The notes: generated by a model from the sequence alone, not told the origin. 64,000 nt of DNA from Acidimicrobiia bacterium (GCA_009838635.1 VXRE01000161.1:2485-66484), one strand, 5' to 3'. Counted from the stretch's first letter, positions 2,685-19,316 are shown. Made by a program: numbers and translations.

Positions 2685-3607
2685 GCGCCGGCGGGGGGGC
2701 GCCGGGCTTCCACCCGTCGATGCGGGGTCCTCACGCTCGAGCCCGGCGGCGGCGGGCTCGGGTCGCATGGCTCGTCCTGGCAGCCGCAATCGTGCTTCTC
2801 GGGGCGGTGGTTGCGGCCGGGGGACTGCTGAGGCGCTCGGTGGTCCTGGACCTGGTCTCGTTCTGGCCGGGCTGGATCGTCACTGCTGCCGTGTTCCTTG
2901 TCCATCAGAGGGTGTCGGGAGTCGGCCAGCGTCTGCCCGGTTACGGCCCCGGCCCGGTCTTGCCGTACTCGTTGACGGGATGGCTCGTTGTCGTGCTGGT
3001 CCTTCATGTGGCCGGTTGGGAGATGCTGCCGTCGTCGGCCGACCGGCTGGAGGGTCCGGCCGTCACCGATCGGATCGCCACGGTCTCCATGGATGTCCGG
3101 CTTGGAGGCGCGGTGATGGTTGAGGCGGGTGCTGATCTCCTCTACGAGGTGTCCAGCCTGGCATCCGCAGGCGCGGTGGCGCCTCCCCGGGGCGAGGAGC
3201 TGCTGACGGGGGACGACCTGGAGGTACGGCTCCGGGAGGGAACCGAGGCAGGATGGTTCGGATCCTCCGGCTGGAAGCTGGCGCTCAACCCGGGCCGCGA
3301 CTGGGCTGTGGCGGTCTCGGCCGCGGAGGTCCAGGCGGATTTCAGGGGCCTGTCGCTCAGGTCGCTTCGAGTGGAGGCGGACGGTGCGATCCGGCTCGGC
3401 CCGGCCCGGGGCGACGTACCGGCGTTGCTGGCCGGCGCCCTGGTCGTCGAAGTCCCTGCAGGGGTGTCCGTGGAAGTCTCCGGACCGGTCACGGTCGGGT
3501 CGGGCTGGGACGCAACCGGCGAGGGAGCGAGTTACCGAGGTGACGGCACGGGGCGTTACCTGATCGAGGTCGACCCGGATTCGGATGTGGTGGTGAACCA
3601 GGCATGA
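2681..3607 (+). CDS. Hypothetical membrane protein with beta-strand-rich C-terminal domain (possibly DUF4097/LiaG-like)
   Basis: GTGA overlap with the upstream gene. N-terminal TM helices, then C-terminal alternating V/E/G strands (VVEVPAGVSVEVSGPVTVGSG). The overlapping 359-aa antisense ORF is Arg/Pro-rich junk. Confidence 0.5.
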   Translation: MSAGGGAPGFHPSMRGPHARARRRRARVAWLVLAAAIVLLGAVVAAGGLLRRSVVLDLVSFWPGWIVTAAVFLVHQRVSGVGQRLPGYGPGPVLPYSLTGWLVVVLVLHVAGWEMLPSSADRLEGPAVTDRIATVSMDVRLGGAVMVEAGADLLYEVSSLASAGAVAPPRGEELLTGDDLEVRLREGTEAGWFGSSGWKLALNPGRDWAVAVSAAEVQADFRGLSLRSLRVEADGAIRLGPARGDVPALLAGALVVEVPAGVSVEVSGPVTVGSGWDATGEGASYRGDGTGRYLIEVDPDSDVVVNQA

Positions 3608-3668
3608 GGAACCCCGGGCACCGGCCGCGGGCCGGTAACCTGACCGGCGGAGAAGGGTCAGGCGAGAA

Positions 3669-4958
3669 GTGAACCAGCAGGATCGCGAAAGGCTTACCAG
3701 GCACGACTGGCTACGGGGCGTAGGCGTGGCGGCCTGGAGCATCGTGGGCATTTTCGTGGTGATCGCCGTTGTGGCGTGGGCCGTCTACCAGGTGCGGATC
3801 ATCTGGGCGCCGCTGATATTCGCGGTACTCCTCGTCTACCTGGTCAAACCGTTGATCGACTTCCTCGAGCGCTTCAGACTCCCGAGGGTTGCGGGGGGGT
3901 TTCTCGTCTACCTGGTGCTCGGTGGCGTACTGGTGCTGATAGGCGTGCTGATCGTTCCGATCATCAGCCGCCAGACGGTCGAGCTGGTGGACCAGGTCCC
4001 CGAGGTGATCGACAGCACCTTCAACCTGGTGGCGGACGTGGCAGCGTCTCTCAACCTGCCGATCGAGTTAGCGGGCGTCGACTCGATATCCGACGAGTTG
4101 GTGGGCTGGTTCTCGGATCCTTCCAACCGCGAGGTGATCCTGGAAGGACTTTCCCGGGCGGGAGAGCTCGCCAGAGGGCTGCTGGAGGGGGTGGTGGTCG
4201 TCCTGCTCGCCCCCGTGCTGGCCTTCTACATCGTCGTGGACGCCCACAATCTCCGGAGAGCGGCTGAGCGGCTGATTCCGGCGGCCGATCGTGCCGAGGT
4301 GGTCCATCTGGCCCGCCAGGTGGGCAAGGCCTTGGGCGGCTTCGTCCGGGGCCAGCTGGTGGTGGCGGCCATCGTCGGAGTCCTGTCCAGCACGGTGCTG
4401 TGGATACTCGACCTGCCGTTCTGGTTGATAGTCGGCCTGCTGGCCGGGTTGCTCAACGTCGTCCCCTTCATCGGTCCGTGGGTGGGAGGTGCGCTCGGGG
4501 TGGCGACCGCGCTGATCGTGGGAGATCCGATCCGGGCGGTCTGGGTCGTCATCGCCTTTCTCATCATCCAGCAGTTCGACAACCACTTCGTGAGCCCGAT
4601 GGTGCTGCGCGTGGCCGTCCATCTGAGCCCGGTCACCATCATCCTGGCGTTGCTGGCCGGCGGGTCCATCGGGGGCCTGCTGGGCGTGCTCATCGCCGTA
4701 CCGACCACCGCGGTCTTCAAGATCATCATCGGCCATCTCTGGCGCACCCGGGTGCTCGGAGAGTCCTGGGAGCAGGCCGCCTCGGCCGTGGTGGTGGAGT
4801 ACGAGGTGGAGCCCTTAAGGGAGCGTTTCCGTCGTGGTGGGGCGGAGGCGAGCAGGGCTGACGAAGAGGATGGGGGAGGACCGGCCGCCGCTGATGGTGA
4901 CATCGCCGACCCGGATCGGACAGGATCCGGCGATAACGATTCCTTGACGGATAGCTGA
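3669..4958 (+). CDS. AI-2E family transporter (PerM/UPF0118)
   Basis: Multi-TM protein with ..LLNVVPFIGPWVGGALGV.. and ..FDNHFVSPMVL.. motifs typical of the AI-2E family. Acidic C-terminal tail. Confidence 0.8.
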   Translation: MNQQDRERLTRHDWLRGVGVAAWSIVGIFVVIAVVAWAVYQVRIIWAPLIFAVLLVYLVKPLIDFLERFRLPRVAGGFLVYLVLGGVLVLIGVLIVPIISRQTVELVDQVPEVIDSTFNLVADVAASLNLPIELAGVDSISDELVGWFSDPSNREVILEGLSRAGELARGLLEGVVVVLLAPVLAFYIVVDAHNLRRAAERLIPAADRAEVVHLARQVGKALGGFVRGQLVVAAIVGVLSSTVLWILDLPFWLIVGLLAGLLNVVPFIGPWVGGALGVATALIVGDPIRAVWVVIAFLIIQQFDNHFVSPMVLRVAVHLSPVTIILALLAGGSIGGLLGVLIAVPTTAVFKIIIGHLWRTRVLGESWEQAASAVVVEYEVEPLRERFRRGGAEASRADEEDGGGPAAADGDIADPDRTGSGDNDSLTDS

Positions 4959-6027: not shown

Positions 6028-6446
6028 CCAGCGGGCTGACCCCCATCGCCGCCGAACTGGCCTCTGCTCTGGTGACCGCCTACGCGCCGTACGTCCGCGG
6101 CAGGGTCGCCTGCCTAGGCCTGGAGGTTCCGCCGGGTCTGGACGATGCCATCCAAGAAGGCCGCCTGTGGCTGGAGACGGCCCTCCGGGACCTGCTCGGA
6201 CGACCCTTCGCGAGCCAGGATCGAGGACCCCTCGAGCTGTTCCAGGAGGCCCTCAGGTTCCCGACCGCGGCTCTGGAGCAGGCCGGGCACCAGCCCGTGC
6301 CCAGAGACGAACTGGTGACCAACGCCTTGCCCGGAGACCTGTTCGACCTGGCGCCCGCATCATCGAACGACCTGGGCGAAGCCGCCTGGACAGCCCACCT
6401 GACATGGGGAGCCTCCAAGGCGGCCGCGATGACCAAGCCGGTGTAA
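6024..6446 (+). CDS. Hypothetical protein
   Basis: GTGA overlap with the upstream gene and plausible composition. No family recognised. Confidence 0.5.
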   Translation: MTSGLTPIAAELASALVTAYAPYVRGRVACLGLEVPPGLDDAIQEGRLWLETALRDLLGRPFASQDRGPLELFQEALRFPTAALEQAGHQPVPRDELVTNALPGDLFDLAPASSNDLGEAAWTAHLTWGASKAAAMTKPV

Positions 6447-6494
6447 TAGCCGAATCGCGGTCCTCTCACGCGAAGTCCGATGGCTGTAGGCCGT

Positions 6495-6543
6495 TTCTGC
6501 ACATTTATGCTTGAGGGATTGAGCAATTCTGCACATGTATGCT
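6495..6543 (+). promoter_or_regulatory. Two copies of a 17-bp direct repeat TTCTGCACAT(T/G)TATGCT upstream of the giant gene (candidate operator/promoter elements)
   Basis: Copies at 6495-6511 and 6527-6543, 16/17 identical, 32 bp start to start. Each ends in a -10-like TATGCT and contains GCA-N6-TGC dyad symmetry. They lie 36-84 nt upstream of the GTG at 6579. Confidence 0.4.
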
Positions 6544-6578
6544 GCGGCGCTCGTTGATCGAAAGAGTGAGCCATTGAT

Positions 6579-9500
6579 GTGATCGAGAGCAGAGAGGAAC
6601 AGCCACCTGACATTGCCGGAATCGTCCGCGATCCACGCGACGAAATCGAAGCGATCCAGTCTCTCTTGGCTGATGTCTACAGGGATGCTGGTGATGGACG
6701 CACACTTTTCCGCGAGCTTGTTCAGAACGCGGACGATGCCGAGGCGCGCCGGCTCACGCTCGTAGTGCTGGAGGATGGCTGGCGCGATGCGCAAAACAGT
6801 CTGCTCCGTGGCCCCGCACTACTGGTTGCTAATGACGGGCCGTTTCCAACGAAGGATCGCGAGGCGCTGCACAAGGCCATCGGTGGGTCGAAGAAGGCTG
6901 ATGTCGACAAGATCGGAACGTTCGGGATTGGGCTGAAGAGCGTCTTCCACATCTGTGAGGCGTTCCTCTACATTGGCGCCGCCCAATCCGAGTGGTGGCC
7001 GGGGGTACTCAACCCATGGTACGGCACGGGCGAGGACGGACGAGGAGATCCCCTTTTCCCCGATTGGGACGTAGTAGGCGAAGAAGATCGACAGAGGCTT
7101 CGGGTCGCTGCAAGGCACCTGCTCGGAGAGACAGACGGCGGCCTACTGCTGTGGATTCCGCTGCGGCGCAACGAGCATGATCGGGGAACCGGTGGTCGAT
7201 TCTGGTTGGCGAGTCATTGTCCAGTGCCTCAAGAGATTTGTTCCTGGTTCGGCTCGTCAACGCCTGCTGCTTTGCTGCTGGCACAGTGCGGGCATCTCCA
7301 GAGCATCGATACGCGGCGTGCCACGAACCCCGAGACGCTGAGCGACAGCGTGACGCTGATGAGCGTCTCTCGACCACCGAGCCGGTGGCTAGGGCGCTAC
7401 CAAGAGGAAAGCACTTGGTTTCTCGAGCGACGTTTCGGCGGCGAGATTGCTGCCACGAAGTCGATGTGGTCCGTGGTCGGAGTCGAATCGCTTGACGGCA
7501 CAAGTCTGGTCAGCCTTCGCGACCACACCGATTGGCCACGGATCACTGTGAATCGGAACGGTCGTCATGAGTGGGCTCCGAGGAAGGCGCTCGCTCACGC
7601 CGCAGTAACGGTCCTTCGGCCCGTCGAGACTGATGCCTACCAATTGGGGACGCGGCTGCGTTGGGCCGTGTTCCTTCCGCTTGATGACCATCCCGAGCCG
7701 GGTTCCAGTGCGATCGTCAAGAGCAACGGGCCGTCGCCCGCCTGGGACATCATCCTGCATGGCTACTTCTGGCCCTCGCAGGATCGCCGGTCCGTTCCTG
7801 GAGTCACCGACCAAGAGGGTGATCCCTCGAGCGGCAACGACATGCGTGTTCGTTGGAATCGCAGACTATGCGAAGAACTGTTGCTTCCCCTGCTGCCACG
7901 CGCACTCGCGGCGGCGGTTGACGGAGTGGAAGAAGAAGCAGCCTTATCGCTGCTACAGCGGGTAGAGGCCTCAGGCATGCTCGAGAACCGCATGCCGTTC
8001 GTCACGCGGCGCCATTGGCTACTGCCGGTCCTTGCGTACAACCGCGCGCATTGGAAAGTAATTGCTGCCGACGCGAGCCTGGTCTTGTCCATCCCGAATT
8101 GGGGCAGGGCGCCCGAGGACGTTCGCGAGCGCTTCTTGGCCTCTTGTAGGGCCGCCGCGGGCGATACGGTGTTCATTGAGGAAACCGCGCCTCGGCTCTC
8201 GGGCGAGCTTGGCGACTGGACCGTAGGTCATCTGGAACTTCTTCTCGGCAGCATTCCCGTAGGCGCATTCGCATCTGTCGAATCGCTGAGGTGGATGGCT
8301 GGAGTCGCAAGTCACATCCTCGGCATGGATGAAAGGCCCCAGGACGCTCGAATGGGGGTCTTCATCCGATGGCTTGTGCAACGGATAGGCGAAGGCGCTC
8401 TTACTCCCACTACCAGACAGTCCTTCACGAGCGAAACTCGTGAGGAGTTGCGGGCTGAATGGCGCAACCTGTGTAGGAACATCCCGGACGGATGGCTTGT
8501 CGAAACGGCGGTGGACTCGCGCCAAGCCGTACAGGAGCTGGCCAACTGTGATGGGATCCTTGGGAAGGGCCTGTTCCTGCTACCGGTCGGACGCCGGTCA
8601 GGAGATCCGGAGCATCCTCTAGACCTTGACAGCGACCAACTGGACCGCGCGCTCACAGCCTTGGGGAACCTATTGCAGGCGGGCGGAGAATCCGAGGGAT
8701 TGCGGCGCTCCAGGCTGCTCCTAAACGAGACACTTCTCTCCGCACGGCTCGAGCGTCACATGGACGCCGGTCTTTGTGGGCTACCGATTCTCCGAGTGAC
8801 CAGGTTGCCGGACGAGATCGAGGAAGCTTGGTCCGTTGCCGATCTTCGTCGCCAGATCGAGAACCGCCGGGTCTTCGACAGGGGAGACAAGGCTGCCACA
8901 AAGGACCTCTCAACGGCGCTCGACGCGCCTGTCTGGTTGGTGAGCGGTGAAGCTTTGGCATCCATAGGCGCCGATGTGCCGACTCCGGAGCCCGAGGCTC
9001 TCGCCGATGCAGTGCTTCAGGCCAGAGAGTTCGCTGAGTCCGGCTCTCGAAGGCCCTTGATCCATCGTCTCGTGTCGAACATTTCAGGCAGCAATACCAA
9101 AGTTCACCTGGCTGCGCGTGCGCTCCTTGCGGGGCATACTGCCGACGTAGTCGGACTTGACACAGAACTGTTCCAGGCTCGCGGCGAGCACCGGAGCGCG
9201 CTGCTCATCTTGCTGCGCTTACTCGACCAGTCGTGGCGGGCCGTTGACCGGCGGGTGGCGGGCTCGCTTTCGCACAACACCCTCGAGGCTTTCTCTGTGA
9301 GTCAGGCCGATCTTGAAGCGCTGCATCGCCTCCTCGATGAATGCCTGGTCAGCCAGGTGGATTGGACGACGCTACGGAACGAGGAGGCACTGCTCCTACT
9401 CAAGCACTCATACAGCACAGACCCGGCATTACGACACCGCTGGCGCGATATGCCCCTGCACCGGGACATCGACGGAATGCGTGGAGCGTTCGACGACAGT

Positions 9501-12500
9501 GCGAAGCGTTCGGGAAGAACAAGTGAAACTGTCTTGCCCTCGGAACTTCGCGCGGATGTGTGCATACTGGACCCGGAGCCCGGAGTAGCCAACCTCTACG
9601 AGTTCATACCTGCGTTGAGTCGTGATCATGTCCTTCGGTTGATGTTGGAGGCCTCACGTCCGTGGTGTTTCGCCGAACGGATCGTGCAACACCTGCGTTC
9701 CGACGATGGTCAGATCAGCCCGCCGCGTGACCTCGACCTGCGTCAACTGTTGAGGACTAGCTCTTGGTTGCCGGATCGCGATGGCGAGGGTCTTTCCCCG
9801 GATGCTGTGCTCATCGCTCCAGAGGAACTGCTCGATGCCGCTGCAGATCTGGCCGAGTCGGGCGCTTTCGGTGCGAAGAAGCTTCCCGATTCAGTCGATC
9901 CGCAGTTCTGGCAGATGGCGGAGCCGGTGGTTCGAGAGATTCTCGGCCGTAGGAGCCACGCGCGCCAGGTAGAACGGCTAGCCGACGCCATGGATCCCGA
10001 TCGCGTAGCGCGGGTAGATGGCGGTGCTTGGCTTGTTATGTCGGAGCCGGAGCGGGTAGACGGTATGTTGATCGACCGCGCTCTGGAAACGACACTTTCC
10101 GGTAGCCATCGCGGTTGGAAGTTCTTGCATACTGTCAACAAGATACTGCGGCGCGGGGCTACTAGCGCATCTAGGGATGATCGGAACGCGCTATTGAAGG
10201 TGGCGAGGTCACTCTGCGCGCCTGTTCCCTGGGTACGCCAGATCGAAGTGCTGACCTTGCTTGCCGACAGCAGACCTGCCAAGGACTCTGCGGGCGGACG
10301 CACGTTCAGGTGGCTTCTGGGCTGTTTCGCAGCACTCAACGGCTTCTTCGAGCAAGTCCTGCCGGAGCTCGACCTGCCCACCCGGGACGGCAACTGGCAT
10401 GTGAGCCGTGATGTCGCGAGGACCGAAACCGGGGTTGCCCGTCAGCACCTTCTGGTCTCTGAACTCCGTCCGACGCTGGGTTTGGACGGCGGCGACCGGC
10501 CCTCGAGTCCGGTGGGTGCGGGAGTGAGAGTGCACGAATCGGCAGTAGACGCGTTGAGGGACTACTTCGAGGCTTGGCGTGGCCAACTCCCGCCCGCCGC
10601 CGTGGGCGCGTTCCTCAGTTTGCTAGGGGGCGGCTCGCGAGGAGAAATCACGAAACTCGCCACGGAGTGGCTTGGGGACGAGATCAGCCCTGAGGCATTG
10701 CGCACAGACAGCACGTTGATTGGAGCGAACGGAAAGGATCCTTGTGCTGGTGTAGTTGTCTGGGTCTCCCCACGTGCCGCGCGCGGGGATCGTGTTTTGG
10801 CGGCCAACGTAATCGGCGAGTGGGTGGAGATGAAGGCCGAGCCTGACAGAAGCACCCTGTTCGCGATTGATCCGGAGGATCATCCCGGCTCGAACTGGGG
10901 GATTGCGCCTGATCGACCCTTCTGGGAGCTTCATCTGCGCGACATCAACCCGCGGGACACCAACAGCTCCGAACTCATACAGCTTCTGGGTGGAACGGTA
11001 GAGAGATGGGCGACCGAATACCTCAAGCTGGACCGAGACCACGTTAGGAAGTGGTGGTCTCGTTGGGCGGGTGGCTCCAAGGTGGACCTTGACCCCGTGC
11101 TCGCCTCAATCTTGGCGCATATGCCGCTCACACTCCGATTACTCAATGTTGGAGGTAGCGCACCGCTCCGGGAAGCTCTCAGGGCCGCCGAGCGCGCACA
11201 AAGGAAGCGAGAGCAGGCGCCCTCGGACGAAACCATCAGCATGGAGAGGGTTTCCCTGCAACGCCTGGCGTACCTCATCGGGATGAGAGAGCACCAGGAT
11301 TATCTTTGGAGGCGCGTCAACGAACTGATGGGCCGCTACGGCTACCGAGCCGACAGCGTGTTGCTTGAACTCGCGCAAAACGCCGACGACGCCCTCGCGC
11401 AGACCGCCGAGATCGAAGGGAGGCCTCTGCCACCCAACAGCCGACGCTTCGTAGTGAAGGTCCAGGAGATCGATGGATCGCCCACCGTTGATGTGATGCA
11501 TTGGGGGCGCCCGATCAACGACACCGGTAGGGCAACCTTTCCGGCTGGTCGAGATCGTCAGTGGGACCAGGATCTTTACTTCATGATGCTCATGAATCTG
11601 AGCAGCAAACCCGGCGAATCGCCGAGAGAAGGTTCTTTGTCCTCGACCACCGGTCGCTTCGGCCTCGGCTTCAAGTCCGTCCACCTCGTTTCGTCGTCCC
11701 CGTCCGTGTTCAGCGGGTTCATCGCATTCTCCATCGTGGGAGGCTTACTTCCGGTGGAGCGAGCAATCCCTGAGGATGCGGACTCATGGATGACCGACGG
11801 TCGCAGAGCAACCCTGGTCCGGATGCCCCTACGAACCGACAGGGACGCAGACAAGCTGATCGGCTCGCTATTTGATCGCTTTTCGTACGCTCGAGTCCTG
11901 TTGCCTGTATTCGCTCGGCAGATTCGGGAAGTCGTTGTTGAATGTGGCCCACATGCCGACCGCCACGCATTCGATGGCCAACCCATAAGAGCCGCATCTG
12001 GGTGGTCAATCGGGACGGAAACCGAGTTGCCCGACGATCGGGGACGCTGGCGGATCCTTCGTTTCCGACCCTCGGACTCGGGGCGAGGGGACATGGGCAC
12101 CGCAGCATTGGCCGTCGGACTACGGGATGACGTTCCGACCGCATTCACCCCGAAGGTACCGTTCCTGTGGAACGTCACGCCGACGAGCGAGGAGTGGGCC
12201 TGCGGTTACGTCGTCAACGGACCGTTCAAGCTTGATCCTGGCCGAACCCATGTGTCTCTTGATGACGAGACGACCCTTGAAACTCTCGATGGCTTGGGCC
12301 GCGAACTTGGAAGAGGCCTGATCGAGTTGCACAAAGGGTTGAGCGGTGTGACAGAGGCACGTGCCCTGCTCAACCAGTCTGGGGGTGACGTTCAGGGTTT
12401 CTTGTCATCTCTTTGGGAGCTTCTCGCCTCCGGTGTGGATAGTCTCGATCCGCTGCGCAAGAAGTTTGTTCTCCGTTTGCACGGGAGTGGTAGCGGCATA

Positions 12501-14039
12501 TCTGCTTGGATGGCCGATTGTTCGGTCGTGCCTACCAATCTACCGGCGCCGTTTCCGAAGTTGCTACCTCCGCTGAGTTCAGGAACGTCGTGGGAAGTCG
12601 CGGCGGATGGCCTGGACGATCCCGATCTTTGCATGAGCCTGGCCGAAGTCGACGATAAGGACTTCCACTCTCTCATCAGCACCCGACACATCGTGTCCGC
12701 CAAGACCAACCGGCTCCTCGCTCCGTTGCTCGCGCCATCCGGGGGACGTGACGATCCGGCCCGGGTAGGTCTGGGTGACTTCCTGGCGGAATTGGCTGAG
12801 AAGTGGGAGTACCGCTTGACGCCAGCACGCCTTCACGCGCTGCGCCCGCTAACCAGTGCTGCAGCTTGGGAGTCAGTTTTCCGCGATCCGCTTGTTGTCA
12901 ACTGGCGCCACAAGATTCGGGCACGAGCAGTTGACGGAAGTTATCAGCCCGTGCATCGGTTGCTGATTGGTAAGTCTCCCCACTTCTCGGGCGGATCTGG
13001 CGGAGGCCTCAAGGATGAACTGCTGCTCTCGGGCTTCGCTCCCGGAAACCAGGTTCTGGATCCTCGGTACATCGCATGCCCGCGGGATTGGAGACTTCTC
13101 CGATGGCTTCGACCGCAAACGGTCCGGGTAGCTGACAGGGAGATCGCGATCTGGTATCGGGACACCGACGAGGACCTTCGCCCGGCCGCGCTTCGCTACC
13201 TGCTTCTAGGAGGACAGCGCGATTCGGTTCTTCAGAAGCTGATCCCACACGGATCCCGTCCCCGGTGGCTTAGCGACCTAGATGGCGTCCGCCACATGCT
13301 CGAGGACATCTGCGACGAGCCGTGGCGTAGGCGGGTACTCCTGGTGACACTCTTTCCCGAAAGGTTCGCGGCGCCGGAGTCCGTGTCATCGCCAGGTTCC
13401 GCCAGCGACTCAGTCGACAGCGGCACATTCTTCAAACGCCTATCGGAATGGTGGAACGAAGCCGAGGTTCGCAGCAACGTGATCGCCGGGTACGAAGAGC
13501 AGGCCTGGCCAAGCTGGCTACGGAGAGGGGCCGACATTTCAGAACGACTCCGAACTCGATCAGAGGACCACTGGCTTGCGCTGCTGATTCTGGGCGCGTG
13601 CCGAGGGCTTGGCCGCAAGGAATCTCAACACCGGGGCTTCCTGGACATGGTTCGCGAGCGCGGATGGTGGGACATATTCAAGAACCCGGATGATCCTGAA
13701 GCCTGGATGCGTATGCTACGGGAGTGGCAGGACGACTCGACGAGGAAGCTGGCCTACGCGCGGTGGATGTCACTGTTCCCGGCGATCTATCAGCTCAGCC
13801 GATACCGGGAGAAGTATGTTCGGGTACTCAGGTCGGCTCGACAATACGAGACGACAGCGTACGGCATAGCTCTCGTGTTTGCGCCGAGGGCGAATCCAGC
13901 CTTCGGGGAAGCTGGCGCACAATTCGACGCACCGCCGGCTCCTCTCGATATGGGTCGCCATTGGGTGCTACGGGAGTTGGTGCGCCTCGGAGTCGTTGAG
14001 GGTGAGCACCTGTACCCGGATTGTTGGGTGCCATCCTAG
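6579..14039 (+). CDS. Giant (2486 aa) protein with two sacsin/Hsp90-type GHKL ATPase modules
   Basis: Module 1: N-box ELVQNADDA (6714-6740), GTFGIGLKSVFH (6915-6950), ILHGYFWPSQDRR (7752-7790). Module 2: ELAQNADDA (11367-11393), GRFGLGFKSVH (11652-11684), YVVNGPFKLDPGR (about 12207-12245). More than 1000 aa of Leu/Arg-rich sequence lies between them. Uninterrupted 7.4-kb ORF. Confidence 0.8.
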   Translation: MIESREEQPPDIAGIVRDPRDEIEAIQSLLADVYRDAGDGRTLFRELVQNADDAEARRLTLVVLEDGWRDAQNSLLRGPALLVANDGPFPTKDREALHKAIGGSKKADVDKIGTFGIGLKSVFHICEAFLYIGAAQSEWWPGVLNPWYGTGEDGRGDPLFPDWDVVGEEDRQRLRVAARHLLGETDGGLLLWIPLRRNEHDRGTGGRFWLASHCPVPQEICSWFGSSTPAALLLAQCGHLQSIDTRRATNPETLSDSVTLMSVSRPPSRWLGRYQEESTWFLERRFGGEIAATKSMWSVVGVESLDGTSLVSLRDHTDWPRITVNRNGRHEWAPRKALAHAAVTVLRPVETDAYQLGTRLRWAVFLPLDDHPEPGSSAIVKSNGPSPAWDIILHGYFWPSQDRRSVPGVTDQEGDPSSGNDMRVRWNRRLCEELLLPLLPRALAAAVDGVEEEAALSLLQRVEASGMLENRMPFVTRRHWLLPVLAYNRAHWKVIAADASLVLSIPNWGRAPEDVRERFLASCRAAAGDTVFIEETAPRLSGELGDWTVGHLELLLGSIPVGAFASVESLRWMAGVASHILGMDERPQDARMGVFIRWLVQRIGEGALTPTTRQSFTSETREELRAEWRNLCRNIPDGWLVETAVDSRQAVQELANCDGILGKGLFLLPVGRRSGDPEHPLDLDSDQLDRALTALGNLLQAGGESEGLRRSRLLLNETLLSARLERHMDAGLCGLPILRVTRLPDEIEEAWSVADLRRQIENRRVFDRGDKAATKDLSTALDAPVWLVSGEALASIGADVPTPEPEALADAVLQAREFAESGSRRPLIHRLVSNISGSNTKVHLAARALLAGHTADVVGLDTELFQARGEHRSALLILLRLLDQSWRAVDRRVAGSLSHNTLEAFSVSQADLEALHRLLDECLVSQVDWTTLRNEEALLLLKHSYSTDPALRHRWRDMPLHRDIDGMRGAFDDSAKRSGRTSETVLPSELRADVCILDPEPGVANLYEFIPALSRDHVLRLMLEASRPWCFAERIVQHLRSDDGQISPPRDLDLRQLLRTSSWLPDRDGEGLSPDAVLIAPEELLDAAADLAESGAFGAKKLPDSVDPQFWQMAEPVVREILGRRSHARQVERLADAMDPDRVARVDGGAWLVMSEPERVDGMLIDRALETTLSGSHRGWKFLHTVNKILRRGATSASRDDRNALLKVARSLCAPVPWVRQIEVLTLLADSRPAKDSAGGRTFRWLLGCFAALNGFFEQVLPELDLPTRDGNWHVSRDVARTETGVARQHLLVSELRPTLGLDGGDRPSSPVGAGVRVHESAVDALRDYFEAWRGQLPPAAVGAFLSLLGGGSRGEITKLATEWLGDEISPEALRTDSTLIGANGKDPCAGVVVWVSPRAARGDRVLAANVIGEWVEMKAEPDRSTLFAIDPEDHPGSNWGIAPDRPFWELHLRDINPRDTNSSELIQLLGGTVERWATEYLKLDRDHVRKWWSRWAGGSKVDLDPVLASILAHMPLTLRLLNVGGSAPLREALRAAERAQRKREQAPSDETISMERVSLQRLAYLIGMREHQDYLWRRVNELMGRYGYRADSVLLELAQNADDALAQTAEIEGRPLPPNSRRFVVKVQEIDGSPTVDVMHWGRPINDTGRATFPAGRDRQWDQDLYFMMLMNLSSKPGESPREGSLSSTTGRFGLGFKSVHLVSSSPSVFSGFIAFSIVGGLLPVERAIPEDADSWMTDGRRATLVRMPLRTDRDADKLIGSLFDRFSYARVLLPVFARQIREVVVECGPHADRHAFDGQPIRAASGWSIGTETELPDDRGRWRILRFRPSDSGRGDMGTAALAVGLRDDVPTAFTPKVPFLWNVTPTSEEWACGYVVNGPFKLDPGRTHVSLDDETTLETLDGLGRELGRGLIELHKGLSGVTEARALLNQSGGDVQGFLSSLWELLASGVDSLDPLRKKFVLRLHGSGSGISAWMADCSVVPTNLPAPFPKLLPPLSSGTSWEVAADGLDDPDLCMSLAEVDDKDFHSLISTRHIVSAKTNRLLAPLLAPSGGRDDPARVGLGDFLAELAEKWEYRLTPARLHALRPLTSAAAWESVFRDPLVVNWRHKIRARAVDGSYQPVHRLLIGKSPHFSGGSGGGLKDELLLSGFAPGNQVLDPRYIACPRDWRLLRWLRPQTVRVADREIAIWYRDTDEDLRPAALRYLLLGGQRDSVLQKLIPHGSRPRWLSDLDGVRHMLEDICDEPWRRRVLLVTLFPERFAAPESVSSPGSASDSVDSGTFFKRLSEWWNEAEVRSNVIAGYEEQAWPSWLRRGADISERLRTRSEDHWLALLILGACRGLGRKESQHRGFLDMVRERGWWDIFKNPDDPEAWMRMLREWQDDSTRKLAYARWMSLFPAIYQLSRYREKYVRVLRSARQYETTAYGIALVFAPRANPAFGEAGAQFDAPPAPLDMGRHWVLRELVRLGVVEGEHLYPDCWVPS

Positions 14040-14042
14040 CAA

Positions 14043-14243
14043 GTGCTTGCCCTTCTGGAGCGTGTCGGCTTCGTCCGCCCGGATGACGCTTTGTCCAACC
14101 CGGAGAAAGCACGCGCCATATTCAACTTCATGATATCCGGGTTAGGCACGGCATCGCCGAATCTCCATCGTGCCTTCGACATACCGGTACGCCGTGTGGC
14201 TTCGGATCCGGATCTGCGCCGTCGGTTCGGCTTGGAGCACTGA
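14043..14243 (+). CDS. 66-aa ORF in the same frame as the giant gene (possible separate micro-protein or severed C-terminus)
   Basis: GTG at 14043 is in frame with 6579 (both divisible by 3), separated only by TAG (14037-14039) plus CAA. Its TGA (14241-14243) overlaps the SNF2 ATG (14243). Confidence 0.4.
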   Translation: MLALLERVGFVRPDDALSNPEKARAIFNFMISGLGTASPNLHRAFDIPVRRVASDPDLRRRFGLEH

Positions 14244-16939
14244 TGGCTCCCCTCGATCCGAACGCGGCGGTCAGGCATCCGCGCTTTGGTAATGGTCATG
14301 TCCTGCTGGATCAGGGCGAGAGCGTCGTTGTCCGCTTCGAGCACGGGATCGAGGAGTGTCTGGCGGCCGACCTCGAACTTGTCGACGGTCTGGCGGAGCG
14401 TATGGCTGCCGGACGGCTCGATTCGGCATTGCCTGTTGTCACGCGAATCCTCGGTGAGTGCATTCGATCAGTTAATGACGCTTGGGGCGTCTTTTCCCGA
14501 TCACGCATCGATTTGCTGCCGCACCAGCTCTGGGTCTGCAAACGCGTCCTCGAATCGTGGCCCACGCGATGGCTGGTTGCTGACGATGTCGGGCTTGGCA
14601 AGACCATCGAGGCGGGTCTCATCCTCACGCCGCTGCTCTCATCGGGGCGGGTGCGTCGGCTGCTGATTCTGGCGCCTGCCAGCCTGGTCGGACAGTGGCA
14701 GGTGCGAATGCGCGAGATGTTCGAAATTCGCATCGCGACCTACGCCGCCGCCGCAGACACACCAAGCTCCGACTTCTGGAACACCCAAGACAAGGTGATC
14801 GCCTCAGCGCATACGTTACGGCTCGATACGGCAGGTCGTTGGGAGCGCATGTTGGACGCCCAACCATGGGATCTCGTTCTTATCGACGAGGCCCATCACA
14901 TGAACGTCGATGAGCAGGGCCGCCGCACGTTGTCGTATCAGCTCTTGGACCGCCTGCAAGAACGGGGCAAGGTCCAGTCGATGGTGCTGTTCACCGGTAC
15001 CCCCCATCGTGGCAAGGACAAGGGATTCCTCTCCCTGCTGAGATTGTTAAGACCCGCCGACTTCGATCCCGACCAGCCTCTCGAAGACCAGATCGGGAAA
15101 CTCCGTTCGGTGATGATTCGCAATAACAAGCACTCCGTCACAGACATGTCCGGCTCGCCGCTGTTCACGCCGGTGCGATCAACTCGGGAGACCTACACCT
15201 ACTCGCCGCAGGAGGCGCGCTTTTATGAGCAGCTCACCCAGTTCATCCTGACAGGCAAGGCCTACGCCGCAGGTCTTCGCTTCAAGGATCAACGTGTGGT
15301 GACCTTGGCCCTCATCACGATGCAGAAGCTCGCCTCGAGTTCTGTGGCGGCAGTAAGACGGGCTCTCACTCGGCGGCTCGCTGGCCTCCGCGACGCGGAG
15401 GCCAGGTTGGAGAAATCGCGCCAGGGTCTGGAGCGCTTGATGGAGCTCCGGGTTCAGGACGACCCGGCGAATCTGGACGAGATCAGTCGGCTGGAGGAGC
15501 AGGTAGTAGAGACCCTCATGGGAGTCAGGCTCAACCCCGACGAGATTCCGGCGCTTGAGGAACTGCTCGCAGCGGCCAGCCAGGTCACCAGCGAGACGAA
15601 AATCGCCCGCATCATCACGGTGATCGACGATTGTTTCGCCGATCGATCCGTGCTGTTCTTCACCGAATACAAGGCAACCCAGGCCTTGCTCATGAGCGCG
15701 CTAAACAAGCGCTACGGTGACGGGTGTGTGACGTTCATTAACGGCGATGGGTATGTGGAGGGTGTACAGGATGCGTCAGGCAACGTCTGCCGCCTGACGG
15801 AAGATCGGCGCCAGGCGGCGGCACGCTTCAACCGGGGAGATGTTCGCTTTCTCGTATCTACGGAGGCCGCCGGCGAGGGCATCGACCTGCAGGAAAGTTG
15901 CAGCGCCTTGGTCCATACCGATCTGCCGTGGAATCCGATGCGCCTGCACCAGCGTGTTGGGCGTTTGAGCCGCTACGGCCAAACAAAGCGCGTTGATGTG
16001 GTCACGGTGAGGAATCCGCACACCGTGGAGAGTCACATCTGGGATCTACTGGACGAGAAGCTGGCACGAATTGACCTGGCACTTAGGGGCGCGATGGACG
16101 ATCCCGAGGACATTCGCCAACTCGTAATCGGGATGGCGTCTCCAGGTATGTTCACCAAGGTGTTCTCCGAAGCCGATTCCGCCAGTGGCAGGGGACAAAC
16201 CCTTGACGATTGGTTCGATGCCGAAACGGCGACATTCGGCAGCGCGGAAGCGGTGGACACCGTGCGCGATCTGGTTGGTAATGTCGCTCGCTTCGACTTC
16301 GGAACCGTGGCGGGCCAGATCCCACGCGTAGATCTGCCGGATCTCGTTCCGTTCGTCAAAGCGATCCTCACCGTCCGAGGCCGGCGGCCCGACCAGGCAG
16401 ACGATCTCCGCCTGTCCTTCCGTCCACCGGAAGAGTGGAAGGACGACTTCTTGATCTCCACGGTCGACCGCTATGAGCTTCTGTTCGCCCGGGAGCCGCA
16501 ACCCAAAGAGGGAGAGGATGTCGCAGGGGTCGGGCTGCGAGTTGTCGACCGAGCGCTCCAGGATGCTGGGGAACTGGCCAGTGCCTATGCCGCGGTCCGT
16601 GGCTTGGACGCTCCCCTTTTCGTATTCAGTGTGCGCGATCGGATCACCGGCTCCGACGGCCCCATCCGCGCTGTGGTCGTGGCTGCCCAAAGGGGCGCAG
16701 ACGGCGACTGGAACCTGATTCGCGATTGGGAACTGGTACATCGCCTCAATCCGCTCGCTGACAAGCCCCGCAGCATTGTGTTCAGCGATGCCGAACCGGC
16801 GCTCGATGCCTCGGATCTGATGCTGAGCGCACACGAGTATGTGGTTTCGATAACCGATGTGCTTGATCTCCCGTTCACCTTGCCGACCGTCGAGAGCCTC
16901 GCTTGCCTCGTACCGGCCTCACACGGTGGTACTCGCTAG
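14243..16939 (+). CDS. SNF2-family ATPase, RapA/HepA-like, with N-terminal Tudor/SH3-like motif and uncharacterised C-terminal region
   Basis: LLPHQL (14513-14530), ADDVGLGKT (14579-14605), DEAHH (14885-14899), QRVGRLSRYGQ (15950-15982). The local pattern LLPHQLWVCKRV..W..LVADDVGLGKTIEAGLIL...RRLLILAPASLVGQWQVRM parallels E. coli RapA as I recall it. Confidence 0.85.
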   Translation: MAPLDPNAAVRHPRFGNGHVLLDQGESVVVRFEHGIEECLAADLELVDGLAERMAAGRLDSALPVVTRILGECIRSVNDAWGVFSRSRIDLLPHQLWVCKRVLESWPTRWLVADDVGLGKTIEAGLILTPLLSSGRVRRLLILAPASLVGQWQVRMREMFEIRIATYAAAADTPSSDFWNTQDKVIASAHTLRLDTAGRWERMLDAQPWDLVLIDEAHHMNVDEQGRRTLSYQLLDRLQERGKVQSMVLFTGTPHRGKDKGFLSLLRLLRPADFDPDQPLEDQIGKLRSVMIRNNKHSVTDMSGSPLFTPVRSTRETYTYSPQEARFYEQLTQFILTGKAYAAGLRFKDQRVVTLALITMQKLASSSVAAVRRALTRRLAGLRDAEARLEKSRQGLERLMELRVQDDPANLDEISRLEEQVVETLMGVRLNPDEIPALEELLAAASQVTSETKIARIITVIDDCFADRSVLFFTEYKATQALLMSALNKRYGDGCVTFINGDGYVEGVQDASGNVCRLTEDRRQAAARFNRGDVRFLVSTEAAGEGIDLQESCSALVHTDLPWNPMRLHQRVGRLSRYGQTKRVDVVTVRNPHTVESHIWDLLDEKLARIDLALRGAMDDPEDIRQLVIGMASPGMFTKVFSEADSASGRGQTLDDWFDAETATFGSAEAVDTVRDLVGNVARFDFGTVAGQIPRVDLPDLVPFVKAILTVRGRRPDQADDLRLSFRPPEEWKDDFLISTVDRYELLFAREPQPKEGEDVAGVGLRVVDRALQDAGELASAYAAVRGLDAPLFVFSVRDRITGSDGPIRAVVVAAQRGADGDWNLIRDWELVHRLNPLADKPRSIVFSDAEPALDASDLMLSAHEYVVSITDVLDLPFTLPTVESLACLVPASHGGTR

Positions 16940-17067: not shown

Positions 17068-18327
17068 TTGTCACAGGGCCACGTTATGTTGGTTGATATG
17101 TACGAAGCACCGACATTCCATGACGCGGACTCGATTCTGGTCGCTGAGAACAACCTCAAAGACGCCCAGCGGGAGATCGACTGCCTCCGGGGCCGCCAAC
17201 TCTCCTGGCTCAAGATGGTGATCCGGCACCGGGGGATCGTCCGGGACGGATACCGCTCCCTCATCGACTGGACAGCATCCCGCCTCGACATACCCCACAC
17301 GGTCGCCCGCGACCTCGCCTACCTGGCCCGCCGCCTGGACGATGACACCATCGATCTCATAGGACGAGGCCACCTCCCGTTCGACCGCACCGTCTCCCAG
17401 CAACGGCTCCTCCAAGCCGGAGCAAGCCCATCCGATGTGGCAGTGTCAGAGGACCTGGACCTGGCAGGGATCACCAAGCTGGCCACCAGGTTCCGCAAAC
17501 TCAGCCGGAGTGACGAACGCAGCGCCTTCGAACGCCAGTTCGTCAACCTGCGCGTGTCCGAAGACGGCACCGTATGGCACCTCTCAGGCAGGCTCACCGC
17601 CACCGATGGACAACTCGTCCGCAAAGCCCTAGACCGCCGCGCCGACCACATACCACCCATCACATCTCAACCGGATACTGAGCTGACGCCCGCTCAGAAG
17701 CAGGCCATCGGCCTCACCACCATGGCCCAAGACGACCTGGACCAATACCTCCAACCAGGAGACCCCGCCGGACGGGAACCCGTCATCATGTTGGTCAAGG
17801 ACCAGACAATGGCTGAAGAATCCGCTGACACGAGAGGCGTCGAAGTGTTCAACGGGCCTCGCGTCGGACCACAGACCGTTGAGACAGTCGAATGCGAGGG
17901 ACGCACCGAAGAAGTCACCATCCAAGATGGCCAAGTCGTCGAGATCGGAGCGGTACGACGCCAGGTCCCCAAACGGCTCCGCCGGGCCGTGCTCGCAAGG
18001 GACCGCAAATGCGTGATCGACTCATGCCAGAGCAGCTACCGGATGCAAACCCACCACGTCATCCCCCGAAGCGACGGCGGAACCAACACGGCCCACAACC
18101 TGGCCACCCTCTGCTGGTACCACCACCACATCGCCATCCACCGGCGCGGACACCAGATCGACCCGCACACGCCACCGCACCGGCGCCGGCTCCTGCCACC
18201 CCGAACCTGGCCCTACTACCGGCACCCCTCCAACGTCGAGTACCTCAGCCCCCACGAGCAGCAACAGCGTGCCTACCAGGCCTTCCTCGACAAGTACCAC
18301 CCCGACCGACCCCACCCGGGCGGATAG
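17068..18327 (+). CDS. DUF222 / HNH endonuclease (REP13E12-type)
   Basis: C-terminal HNH signature CVIDSCQSSYRMQTHHVIPRSDGGTNTAHNLATLCWYHHHIAIHRRG. N-terminal region resembles actinobacterial DUF222 proteins. Start uncertain (TTG 17068, ATG 17086 or 17098). Confidence 0.8.
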   Translation: MSQGHVMLVDMYEAPTFHDADSILVAENNLKDAQREIDCLRGRQLSWLKMVIRHRGIVRDGYRSLIDWTASRLDIPHTVARDLAYLARRLDDDTIDLIGRGHLPFDRTVSQQRLLQAGASPSDVAVSEDLDLAGITKLATRFRKLSRSDERSAFERQFVNLRVSEDGTVWHLSGRLTATDGQLVRKALDRRADHIPPITSQPDTELTPAQKQAIGLTTMAQDDLDQYLQPGDPAGREPVIMLVKDQTMAEESADTRGVEVFNGPRVGPQTVETVECEGRTEEVTIQDGQVVEIGAVRRQVPKRLRRAVLARDRKCVIDSCQSSYRMQTHHVIPRSDGGTNTAHNLATLCWYHHHIAIHRRGHQIDPHTPPHRRRLLPPRTWPYYRHPSNVEYLSPHEQQQRAYQAFLDKYHPDRPHPGG

Positions 18328-18518
18328 CCGCAGGGCCAGACACCAGCAAAGGGCGGTTTGAACCGATACGGGACGCCGCTGGGTCCTCGCGACCGCTCTT
18401 TACCAGGCATGCCATTAGATGTTCTGGAACCGCGTCACCTCTTACACCTGGACTACGTCACCTCATCGGGCGCTGGAGTGGATCAGTTCGGGTAGACGTC
18501 GTGGAGGGATGGCCCGAC

Positions 18519-18935
18519 CTACCCTTGCCTGTCTGCCGGGCGAGCCCGAATCGTGGCGATATCAATTTCCGTCAATACAGCGGTTTCTACTTGTCCCAGT
18601 TTCGCCCACCTTCTTATATCTCGGAACAGCACAGTTTGCTCCGCATGCACTTGAAACTTGTAATACGGTTCTCGCCGCAGTTTGCCGTATCCAGCGTTCA
18701 CCAGGCGCTCTGCCGGATGCAATCCTTTGATAAGTCCTACCACCACAGAGTTTCGGTAAACCGTGACAACCGTACACGGAGGAAGAACAGTCCCGTCCGA
18801 CAGTGTGAACTGCCACCGGCTGTCCGGGTGCTTCCGCAGATCGCGGCGGAGTGCCCGGCGTGCTTGGCGGTCCCGCTTTCCAGCCGCAAGAACAGCAACA
18901 AGCCTCTCAATGGCGGTTACCACACTCATGCTCAT
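18519..18935 (-). CDS. Hypothetical protein (138 aa) in the AT-richer island remnant
   Basis: Balanced amino-acid composition in an otherwise ORF-poor region of roughly 50% GC. No family recognised. Confidence 0.4.
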   Translation of the reverse strand: MSMSVVTAIERLVAVLAAGKRDRQARRALRRDLRKHPDSRWQFTLSDGTVLPPCTVVTVYRNSVVVGLIKGLHPAERLVNAGYGKLRREPYYKFQVHAEQTVLFRDIRRWAKLGQVETAVLTEIDIATIRARPADRQG

Positions 18936-19243
18936 CCCTGTCTCGTTTCAGTCCAGCGATCAACACGCAATCCCGGGCCTGGGACCGTGATGCCATCGCT
19001 CTGCGCCAGAGTACCACGAACGTATGTTCATGTCCGAGGTCCTGGATGCCTTTGATCCGAAGGGTGCTTCCGTCGGAGGGGGATGGGTAAGGGTTGGGCA
19101 CCTGACCCACATCACCCACCAAGTTGACGCCCGCAGCGCCGAGTACACCGCATCAGTTCGCCAGGAACCCTCACATCAGCCACAAACCCGACCACGCCCC
19201 TACCCGCGAACTCAACGCCCCGCAACCAGCGAAGACCTCGCCG

Positions 19244-19316
19244 CGCCCGCGGCAGGATTCGAACCTGCGACCTACCGCTTAGGAGGCGGTTGCTCTATCC
19301 CCTGAGCTACGCGGGC
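19244..19316 (-). tRNA. tRNA-Arg (anticodon CCU)
   Basis: Reverse complement folds as GCCCGCG TA GCTC AGGGGATA GAGC A ACCGC CTCCTAA GCGGT AGGTC GCAGG TTCGAAT CCTGC CGCGGGC G. No encoded CCA. Confidence 0.9.

Follow-up and report, generated by a model that had tools for sequence, protein, structure and literature searches.

Does a giant sacsin-like ATPase encoded next to a SNF2-family motor in an Acidimicrobiia bacterium belong to a defence module, and of how many genes would such a module consist? The locus that raises this question occupies positions 6579–16939 of a 64,000-nucleotide stretch of DNA (GCA_009838635.1, VXRE01000161.1:2485-66484), the whole of which is called the window below. 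A first-pass annotation, made from the sequence alone, had proposed an undescribed conflict/defence module in which three open reading frames (ORFs) form one operon. The ORF list gives a giant ORF of 2486 codons with a GTG start (6579–14039), a 66-codon ORF referred to as the micro-ORF (14043–14243), and a SNF2 ORF of 898 codons (14243–16939); all three are on the plus strand, and the stop codon of the second overlaps the start codon of the third within an ATGA. The analysis reported here describes a real and widespread cassette of two genes, which is apparently undescribed and apparently a variant of the MORC/paraMORC theme that combines a GHKL ATPase with a helicase. Its defence function is inferred from gene context.

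An obligate pair of genes

Relatives of the SNF2 protein were sought in one genome per species (185,579 species), which resulted in 350 reported stretches; the best 80 loci were analysed. These loci span more than 12 phyla, the taxa including Acidimicrobiia, Gemmatimonadota, Chloroflexota, Alpha-, Gamma- and Deltaproteobacteria, Planctomycetota, Verrucomicrobiota, Cyanobacteria, Nitrospira, Poribacteria, Spirochaetia, Latescibacterota, Bacillota and others. The first-pass annotation had suggested a survey of whether the two large genes co-occur; wherever one of the best 80 loci had upstream DNA, tblastn placed a homologue of the giant protein immediately before the SNF2 gene and in the same orientation, even at an identity of only about 24%. 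Two clades were distinguished. In clade A the identities were 62–96% for the SNF2 protein and 42–76% for the giant, and in clade B they were about 50% and about 24–30%, respectively, yet the giant is still full length. Between phyla, the identity of the SNF2 protein is 65–96%. The stop codon of the giant gene and the start codon of the SNF2 gene overlap or abut, and an all-versus-all clustering of the 830 ORFs from the best 80 loci revealed that only the giant and SNF2 genes are conserved, with nothing else present in more than four loci. The two genes are an obligate, translationally coupled cassette, the distribution of which is sporadic, cross-phylum and horizontally spread. A total of 353 homologues of the giant were found; the full-length ones measure 2535–2600 residues. 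In RefSeq the giant bears the name "hypothetical protein".

The only interrupted pair seen was in a Thermoguttaceae genome (L048), where a 435-residue gene (8633–9940) stands between the giant and SNF2 genes. Two 27,797-bp contigs, deposited as Desulfopila sp. and Cytophagaceae (L054 and L055), agree in range, match positions and scores and seem to be a single contig; the binning of one of these two metagenome-assembled genomes (MAGs) is probably wrong. Many clade A loci (L008, L009, L010, L013, L042, L058 and others) presumably derive from sponge-associated communities, as the names of the MAGs suggest (Poribacteria, Ca. Palauibacter, and the IRC, APA and COS bins), and a SNF2 identity of 75–84% between phyla is consistent with recent exchange in a shared habitat.

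Of the proposed three-gene operon, the ORF coordinates and the ATGA overlap stood, and the third gene did not. Only TAG-CAA separates the micro-ORF from the giant ORF, whose frame it shares, and the full-length homologues are all continuous across the position of this TAG ("...DCW[VM]PSEQVL...RRRFGLEQ"), most having Glu or Lys there. Since the micro-ORF shares the frame of the giant and the homologues read through, the locus consists of two genes; a separate micro-gene is ruled out, and what had been taken for one is a conserved stretch of 66 residues, the C-terminal tail that has been cut off from the giant protein. The TAG (14037–14039, plus strand) is a derived nonsense codon; a stop at this position was found in none of 26 readable homologous loci. 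It falls 67 codons ahead of the normal end, the intact length here being about 2553 residues, and the 66 lost residues include the conserved D2534 and P2536. An assembly error is ruled out by an independently assembled MAG contig (GCA_009843115.1, L086; 99.93% identical, with 10 mismatches in 14,975 bp), which carries the same TAG. Because this codon is shared with an independent contig, and because TAG is also the SNF2 gene's own normal stop, the TAG at 14037 is a real stop codon.

The giant protein and the SNF2 motor

Curated matches of the giant protein are to the sacsin N-terminal ATP-binding domain only (Pfam SACS PF25794, 95.8 bits against a threshold of 32.8). The protein also scored 104.3 bits with NCBIfam NF047352 (threshold 50), in two stretches, and the closest and only solved relative was SRR1 of human sacsin (PDB 5V44, E = 6e-9). 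The two GHKL modules, or heads, are encoded on the plus strand at 6651–7898 (module 1, residues ~25–440) and 11304–12563 (module 2, residues ~1576–1995). Module 1 has its N-box, ELVQNADDA, at 6714–6740, a lid, GTFGIGLKSVFH, at 6915–6950, and the downstream motif ILHGYFWPSQDRR at 7752–7790 with the conserved R403; in module 2 the N-box ELAQNADDA is found at 11367–11393, the lid GRFGLGFKSVH at 11652–11684 and the motif YVVNGPFKLDPGR at 12207–12245 with R1889. The modules are paralogous, as aligned by hhalign with a probability of 98.3% and an E-value of 1.6e-14 over 176 columns. Conservation was scored across 24 aligned sequences that cover both clades, a residue being called conserved when present in at least 23 of the 24. 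In module 1 these residues are E46, N50, D52, D53, G113, G116, G118 and R403. Neither head has lost its general-base Glu or its Mg-binding Asn (E46 and N50; E1597 and N1601), its Gly-rich lid or its downstream Arg (R403; R1889), and both are predicted to be catalytically intact.

The linker between the heads (7899–11258, plus strand; residues ~441–1560) is rich in Leu, Arg and Ala (13.8% Leu and 10.3% Arg), and the residues conserved in it are of a structural kind only (Pro, Leu, Phe, Trp and one Arg); it presumably serves as a sensor arm or scaffold. A PD-(D/E)xK nuclease in this region was considered and rejected as noise, the sole Pfam match being a sub-threshold PDDEXK_1 (E = 0.12) with no conserved acidic or Lys residues. 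Further internal repeats resembling the sr3 or srX of SIRPT modules were not detected when the halves of the linker were compared with the C-terminal region by hhalign.

The C-terminal region (12546–14036, plus strand; residues 1990–2486) is predicted to be all-alpha and is Trp-rich, with RELVR at 13971–13985 as its best-conserved polar motif and a less conserved R-x4-H motif at 13614–13631. When intact, this region comprises about 560 residues, and its AlphaFold2 (AF2) model is entirely helical, with a mean predicted local distance difference test score (pLDDT) of 68.7. The model had no Foldseek match in PDB or BFVD (best E-value about 0.8), and profile searches of the region against PDB and Pfam were likewise negative. 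An exhaustive phmmer search recovered 619 clusters (50% identity) that contain the region; all the full-length matches listed have it at the C-terminus of a protein of ~2,300–2,800 residues, and the shorter matches look like fragments. Among 58 diverse representatives, the most conserved polar residues are E2466 (100%), R2465 and R2469 (98% each), E2147 (95%) and D2534 (93%). A C-terminal HEPN domain, as in human sacsin, was examined as a candidate and is a weak lead only: the RKESQH string appeared invariant in the 24 aligned sequences, but R2346 and H2351 of its R-x4-H motif are only 80–95% conserved in the 58 representatives, and no HEPN match was obtained with AF2/Foldseek or with PDB and Pfam profiles.

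The SNF2 protein (14243–16939, plus strand) matched Pfam SNF2-rel_dom and Helicase_C, and its motor is complete, with GLGKT at 14591–14605, DEAHH at 14885–14899 and motif VI (QRVGRLSRYGQ) at 15950–15982; the catalytic residues are kept in both clades. Its best PDB sequence match was RapA (4e-32). The AF2 model has a pLDDT of 83.9 and a predicted template modelling score of 0.77. At the N-terminus of the model is a small, four-stranded beta-barrel (14267–14362; strands within residues 9–40), which we take to resemble the N-terminal domain of RapA; a Tudor domain of the PcrA/UvrD type was considered here, and Pfam was negative for it. A confidently modelled alpha/beta domain forms the C-terminus (16310–16927). 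Foldseek ranked RapA first, with E-values of 1.9e-28 to 1.3e-27 over 1011–1112 columns, compared with ~1e-17 for other remodellers, and the TM-scores with RapA were only 0.38–0.47, which probably reflects a differing orientation of domains. By sequence and by predicted fold, the SNF2 protein is RapA-like.

The only strong PADLOC match at the locus was that of the SNF2 protein to the "DrmD" model PDLC02634 (933 bits, E = 2.8e-281), which extends over residues 8–893 of the protein and positions 9–897 of the 900 in the model. In contrast, the protein scored below every curated NCBIfam equivalog cut-off: 267 versus 610 bits for DrmD (NF038317), 152 versus 950 for DrmD_b (NF038318), 177 versus 500 for DpdE and 171 versus 576 for RapA (NF003426). 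The end-to-end fit suggests that what PDLC02634 models is this very SNF2 family, and the match is not by itself a sign of membership in DISARM.

The first-pass annotation fared well with regard to the two proteins. All the motifs that it had picked out (the two N-boxes, the two lids, ILHGYFWPSQDRR, YVVNGPFKLDPGR, GLGKT, DEAHH and QRVGRLSRYGQ) were recovered at the same coordinates, and its description of two heads of the sacsin/Hsp90 flavour, of a Leu/Arg-rich spacer of more than 1000 residues between them and of a complete RapA/HepA-like motor agrees with the profile, structural and hhalign matches, the composition and the RapA comparisons given above. It had recognized neither a nuclease nor a methyltransferase motif, and Pfam, NCBIfam and PADLOC identified no such domain in either large protein. 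The search for hidden nuclease or sensor folds that it had advised, carried out with Pfam on the linker and with AF2 and Foldseek on the C-terminal region and the SNF2 protein, revealed no nuclease or methylase fold.

Surroundings of the pair

Known defence genes or mobile genes often adjoin the pair, although its neighbours vary. Neighbouring genes were scored within 5 kb of the pair. Those related to defence encode BrxL (twice), PglZ, NucC, PDC-S01, PDC-M19A, PDC-M27C, PDC-S68, a type IIG restriction-modification (RM) or DrmMI-like protein, an SspC/BrxC-like protein, HmaA, DpdJ, RmrA, CapP, PbeA and NACHT/AAA_16 proteins, with BrxL or PglZ adjoining the pair in some clade A loci; the mobile ones include DDE and Mu transposases and phage-type integrases. 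Three homologues examined singly each belonged to such a pair, in surroundings unrelated to one another; NACHT/AAA_16 ATPases adjoin one of these pairs, and a PLD-like protein and BrnA another. Full-length pairs were also found on five megaplasmids. On pC33 of Sphingomonas, the pair and, upstream of it, the genes of an AAA ATPase and a RecD-like helicase lie between two copies of the insertion sequence (IS) IS3, and on Deinococcus plasmids the pair adjoins IS4, RHS or CHAT-TPR genes. On plasmid C of Trichormus variabilis the pair is about 5 kb from a complete set of drmA, a DUF1998 (DrmB) gene and drmC on the opposite strand, plus methyltransferases, an adjacency that may explain the "DrmD" label in PADLOC. 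Downstream of the SNF2 gene, a block of genes is conserved in one sub-lineage and may make up an extended, methylase-containing variant; within it, a ~1,313-residue type IIG/DrmMI-like methyltransferase and a ~1,365-residue SspC/BrxC-like ATPase were encoded only in L054, L055 and L059. Genes of ~280 and 153 residues occur downstream of SNF2 in L054, L055, L059 and/or L083, the last of which shares only these two small genes.

In the window itself, the pair lies in a block of lower G+C content (0.60–0.63 over 6–19 kb, compared with ~0.66–0.71 in the flanks). The genes upstream are ordinary ones, encoding two ABC ATPases, a tRNA-Thr, a LytR_C protein, an AI-2E transporter, a CvpA/CAP protein and a small ORF. 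An HNH/DUF222 gene (17068–18327, plus strand; Pfam HNH and DUF222) follows the pair, and a tRNA-Arg(CCT) gene (19243–19316, minus strand; ARAGORN and Rfam) marks the downstream edge of the site. The low-G+C block, the adjacent tRNA and the HNH gene after the operon had all been noted in the first-pass annotation and are indeed present. No integrase and no att repeats flanking the low-G+C block were found by domain scan and repeat search.

The cassette occupies the same site in two other Acidimicrobiia genomes (L001 and L005) and on two contigs (L004 and L089). Between the window and these relatives, the flanking proteins are 81–94% identical and the SNF2 protein 84–94%; the giant diverges faster than the flanking genes, being 65–76% identical. 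Because the locus is syntenic in relatives with flanking proteins of 81–94% identity, the cassette is not a recent insertion in the lineage of the window. The DNA identity to L001 over 6401–9200 is 88–100% (mostly 97–100%), which exceeds that of the flanks; it falls to 64–76% over 9201–13600 and afterwards returns to 86–97%, with sharp recombination breakpoints inside the giant gene. From this drop and return within the gene we conclude that an internal 4.4-kb block was exchanged for a divergent allele; the recombined variable core thus delimited extends over 9200–13600 on the plus strand (residues ~875–2340). A more distant relative (L098) lacks the cassette: between the same CvpA/CAP and small-ORF genes and its tRNA-Arg(CCT) there is a single, unrelated gene. 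This single gene at the cassette site (2964–4470) encodes a 470-residue, acyltransferase-like protein, presumably of the WS/DGAT type. Since a different gene is found at the same tRNA-adjacent position, the site is variable, with different cargo in different lineages. No clean empty site was found among the metagenome contigs scanned with the CvpA/CAP protein, which comprised one close relative, carrying the cassette, and distant ones only.

The HNH/DUF222 gene is a lineage-specific neighbour outside the conserved cassette, and is present only in the window and in L001, L004 and L005, which makes four Acidimicrobiia loci. Its product is 81–87% conserved among related Acidimicrobiia loci and weakly matches the HNH part of the NCBIfam IscB model (34 bits versus a cut-off of 175). 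The ~900 bp between this gene and tRNA-Arg (18328–19242) gave no domain match and no alignment to relatives; in L005 the end of the HNH gene is only ~50 bp from the tRNA. An overlapping ORF of 387 codons (17892–19055) has no family match and is probably spurious.

Known systems and the function of the pair

MORC/paraMORC GHKL ATPases have been described together with SWI2/SNF2 or other superfamily 2 helicases in RM-like operons (Iyer, Abhiman and Aravind, 2008; PMC2292703). The present cassette is alike in having the gene of a GHKL ATPase with intact motifs beside that of a SNF2-family helicase, and in its sporadic, laterally mobile occurrence among mobile and defence genes. It differs in that the heads are, by sequence, of the sacsin/Hsp90 type with a conserved downstream Arg, that two of them are contained in one chain of ~2,550 residues, and that the operon has no conserved nuclease or methylase gene across the best 80 loci. 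With eukaryotic sacsin (SACS, with its SRR/SIRPT modules) the giant shares the N-terminal ATP-binding signature, a likeness evident over the first ~100 residues of each head, as well as the arrangement of several modules in one giant chain with long matchless regions between them. Moreover, R403 and R1889 downstream of the heads resemble the sr2 arginine of sacsin (PMC3629688). Unlike sacsin, the giant has two modules instead of three, has no UBL or DnaJ domain and no detectable HEPN domain (Pfam, and Foldseek with the C-terminal model), and has an obligate SNF2 partner gene.

Among named defence systems, Tiamat (TmtA; PADLOC and DefenseFinder) has an N-terminal sacsin-type GHKL head, and the TmtA hidden Markov models (HMMs) matched both heads of the giant at ~80 bits. 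However, only ~90 of the 1,300–1,650 positions of these models match, and Tiamat is a single gene of ~1,300–1,650 codons, whereas the giant is twice that size, has two heads and is always accompanied by SNF2. The SNF2 core is closest to RapA/HepA by sequence and predicted fold, although the RapA equivalog cut-off was missed, and the defence relatives of RapA/HepA that were considered are DrmD (DISARM class 1), ArmA (ARMADA II), BrxHI/BrxHII, HmaA and DpdE. In the case of DISARM, the PADLOC DrmD HMM was matched, but the NCBIfam DrmD cut-offs were missed, and no DrmA, DrmB (DUF1998), DrmC (PLD) or DrmM methylase was found in the 20 kb of the window that were scanned, nor does any of them recur among the ~80 loci; only on the Trichormus plasmid do such genes adjoin the pair, in the opposite orientation. 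The HMM of HmaA, from the HmaA, HmaB and HmaC system, reached 218 bits over the motor core only, and no methylase partner is present in the window. Here the partner of the SNF2 protein is the sacsin-like giant, and not DrmA/DrmB/DrmC/DrmM as in DISARM class 1 or ArmB/ArmC/ArmD as in ARMADA II. Judged by their defining features, the pair is not DISARM, Tiamat, Hma or ARMADA, and no named system or curated NCBIfam equivalog that covers the pair was found in PADLOC or NCBIfam. A full-text literature search, of incomplete coverage and hence compatible with an earlier description, found no bacterial sacsin-like protein paired with a SNF2 protein. The view that the locus belongs to no named system is therefore upheld as regards gene content, DISARM included, with the caveat that the SNF2 protein matches the PADLOC DrmD model from end to end.

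Our preferred reading, which we hold with confidence evenly balanced against doubt, is that the pair is a self-contained, horizontally mobile and autonomous two-gene conflict cassette directed against phages or plasmids. It is supported by the pairing and coupling of the genes, their spread across phyla, the mobile and defence context, the intact catalytic residues in both clades, the allelic replacement within the giant, the variable tRNA site, and the fact that operons of a GHKL ATPase and a SNF2 helicase are an established RM-like theme (PMC2292703). Of the conflict module as first proposed, the obligate pair, its sporadic spread and its defence and mobile neighbours were retained; the micro-ORF is no component of it, the HNH gene is specific to the lineage, the insertion is not recent, and the assignment to defence is contextual. 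Several observations weigh against this reading. Neither a nuclease or methylase fold nor that of any other effector was detected, and the C-terminal region, modelled with only moderate confidence, matches nothing. The conservation of the SNF2 protein is unusually strong for a gene of defence; many of the neighbours are ordinary transport and metabolic genes, and the list of neighbours is one of raw occurrence. None of the phage records searched carries the SNF2 protein or the pair. Within the Acidimicrobiia lineage the locus keeps its synteny and has housekeeping genes on its flanks, and the window's own copy of the giant carries a premature stop.

If the cassette does act in conflict, the two GHKL heads might close on each other in cis on ATP binding, as the heads of Hsp90, MutL and MORC do in trans, and the long arm would thereby become an ATP-gated clamp round DNA or a nucleoprotein complex. 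The SNF2 motor, as a RapA-like double-stranded DNA translocase, could dock on the C-terminal tail of the giant and drive DNA scanning or loading, or strip polymerases off the target, and the fast-evolving, recombining core of the giant (residues ~875–2340) might set specificity. Restriction would then be brought about either by the C-terminal domain, acting as an unrecognised nuclease through the conserved R2465, E2466, R2469, E2147 and D2534, or by nuclease-free compaction or road-blocking. The cis-dimerisation of the heads and the docking of SNF2 are pure inference, which also counts against the scheme. In its most far-reaching form, the proposal is of a "prokaryotic sacsin", in which a double-headed Hsp90/sacsin clamp and a RapA-like motor confer autonomous immunity, with either a new C-terminal nuclease fold or nuclease-free silencing as the effector, and which represents the bacterial stock of eukaryotic sacsin in the same way that MORCs came from RM-linked GHKL ATPases. 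This version is tentative, and we regard it as possible although doubtful.

RapA acts on stalled or post-termination RNA polymerase, and a rival explanation takes the pair for a device of transcription or nucleoprotein quality control rather than of immunity, the motor working on such polymerases, the heads serving as a chaperone or disaggregase, and the whole being an accessory stress-tolerance module. This would accord with RapA being by far the closest characterised relative of the motor, in sequence as well as in whole-length fold, with the presumed likeness of the N-terminal beta-barrel to the N-terminal domain of RapA, with the strong conservation of SNF2, with the housekeeping flanks in the window, with the lack of a detectable nuclease or methylase in either protein, and with the sacsin/Hsp90 type of the heads, sacsin having been described as a chaperone (PMC3710099). 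We nevertheless think it unlikely, in that only 350 relatives were reported from 185,579 species genomes, patchily across phyla and in variable neighbourhoods, that the pair occurs beside IS elements and defence genes and on plasmids, that the giant undergoes the recombinational allele swapping typical of conflict genes, and that the NCBIfam RapA cut-off was missed (171 versus 576). Another explanation would make the pair a non-autonomous accessory, "DrmD plus partner", of DISARM-, Hma- or BREX-like systems whose methylase and nuclease are encoded elsewhere. The full-length match to PDLC02634, the Trichormus plasmid with its drm genes and methyltransferases ~5 kb away, the methyltransferase and ATPase that follow the pair in L054, L055 and L059, and the BrxL or PglZ neighbours in some clade A loci all point in this direction. 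Such a role is improbable in our view, since no methylase, DrmA, DrmB or DrmC is present in more than four of the ~80 loci or in the 20 kb of the window that were scanned, the NCBIfam DrmD scores are far under their cut-offs, and the Trichormus DISARM genes, encoded on the other strand, are a complete set in themselves.

Whether the copy in the window is a decaying relic, its giant inactivated by the nonsense mutation, is a separate question from what the family does elsewhere. The stop removes 66 conserved residues, D2534 and P2536 among them, at a position where no homologue has one, and is common to two nearly identical assemblies; the giant is, moreover, split or degraded in ~7 of 54 complete loci elsewhere. 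On the other hand, the 7.4 kb of the rest of the gene contain no further stops or frameshifts, and the tail ORF has kept its frame, a GTG start 3 nucleotides past the TAG, and the ATGA coupling to SNF2. Splits are also conserved in the Nostocales, where the giant is encoded in two parts, of 828 and 1853 residues on plasmid C of Trichormus variabilis ATCC 29413 (L084, 5907–16676) and of 823 and 1785 residues in Dolichospermum (L067), which suggests a natural two-subunit form and shows that the giant tolerates production in pieces; on pC33 of Sphingomonas the parts are of 1607 and 799 residues. The giant of the window may function in two pieces or be impaired, and we consider it rather doubtful that this copy is a relic.

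Should the cassette prove to be an immune system, as in our preferred reading, it would add a large unannotated family, with more than 500 clusters at 50% identity in many phyla and with culturable hosts, whose architecture of two GHKL heads per chain, a RapA-like translocase and no recognisable nuclease is without characterised precedent. It would also provide a tractable bacterial model for the sacsin ATPase module of the human ataxia protein, and the PADLOC "DrmD" model would be shown to label a system different from the one that the name of DISARM's DrmD implies.

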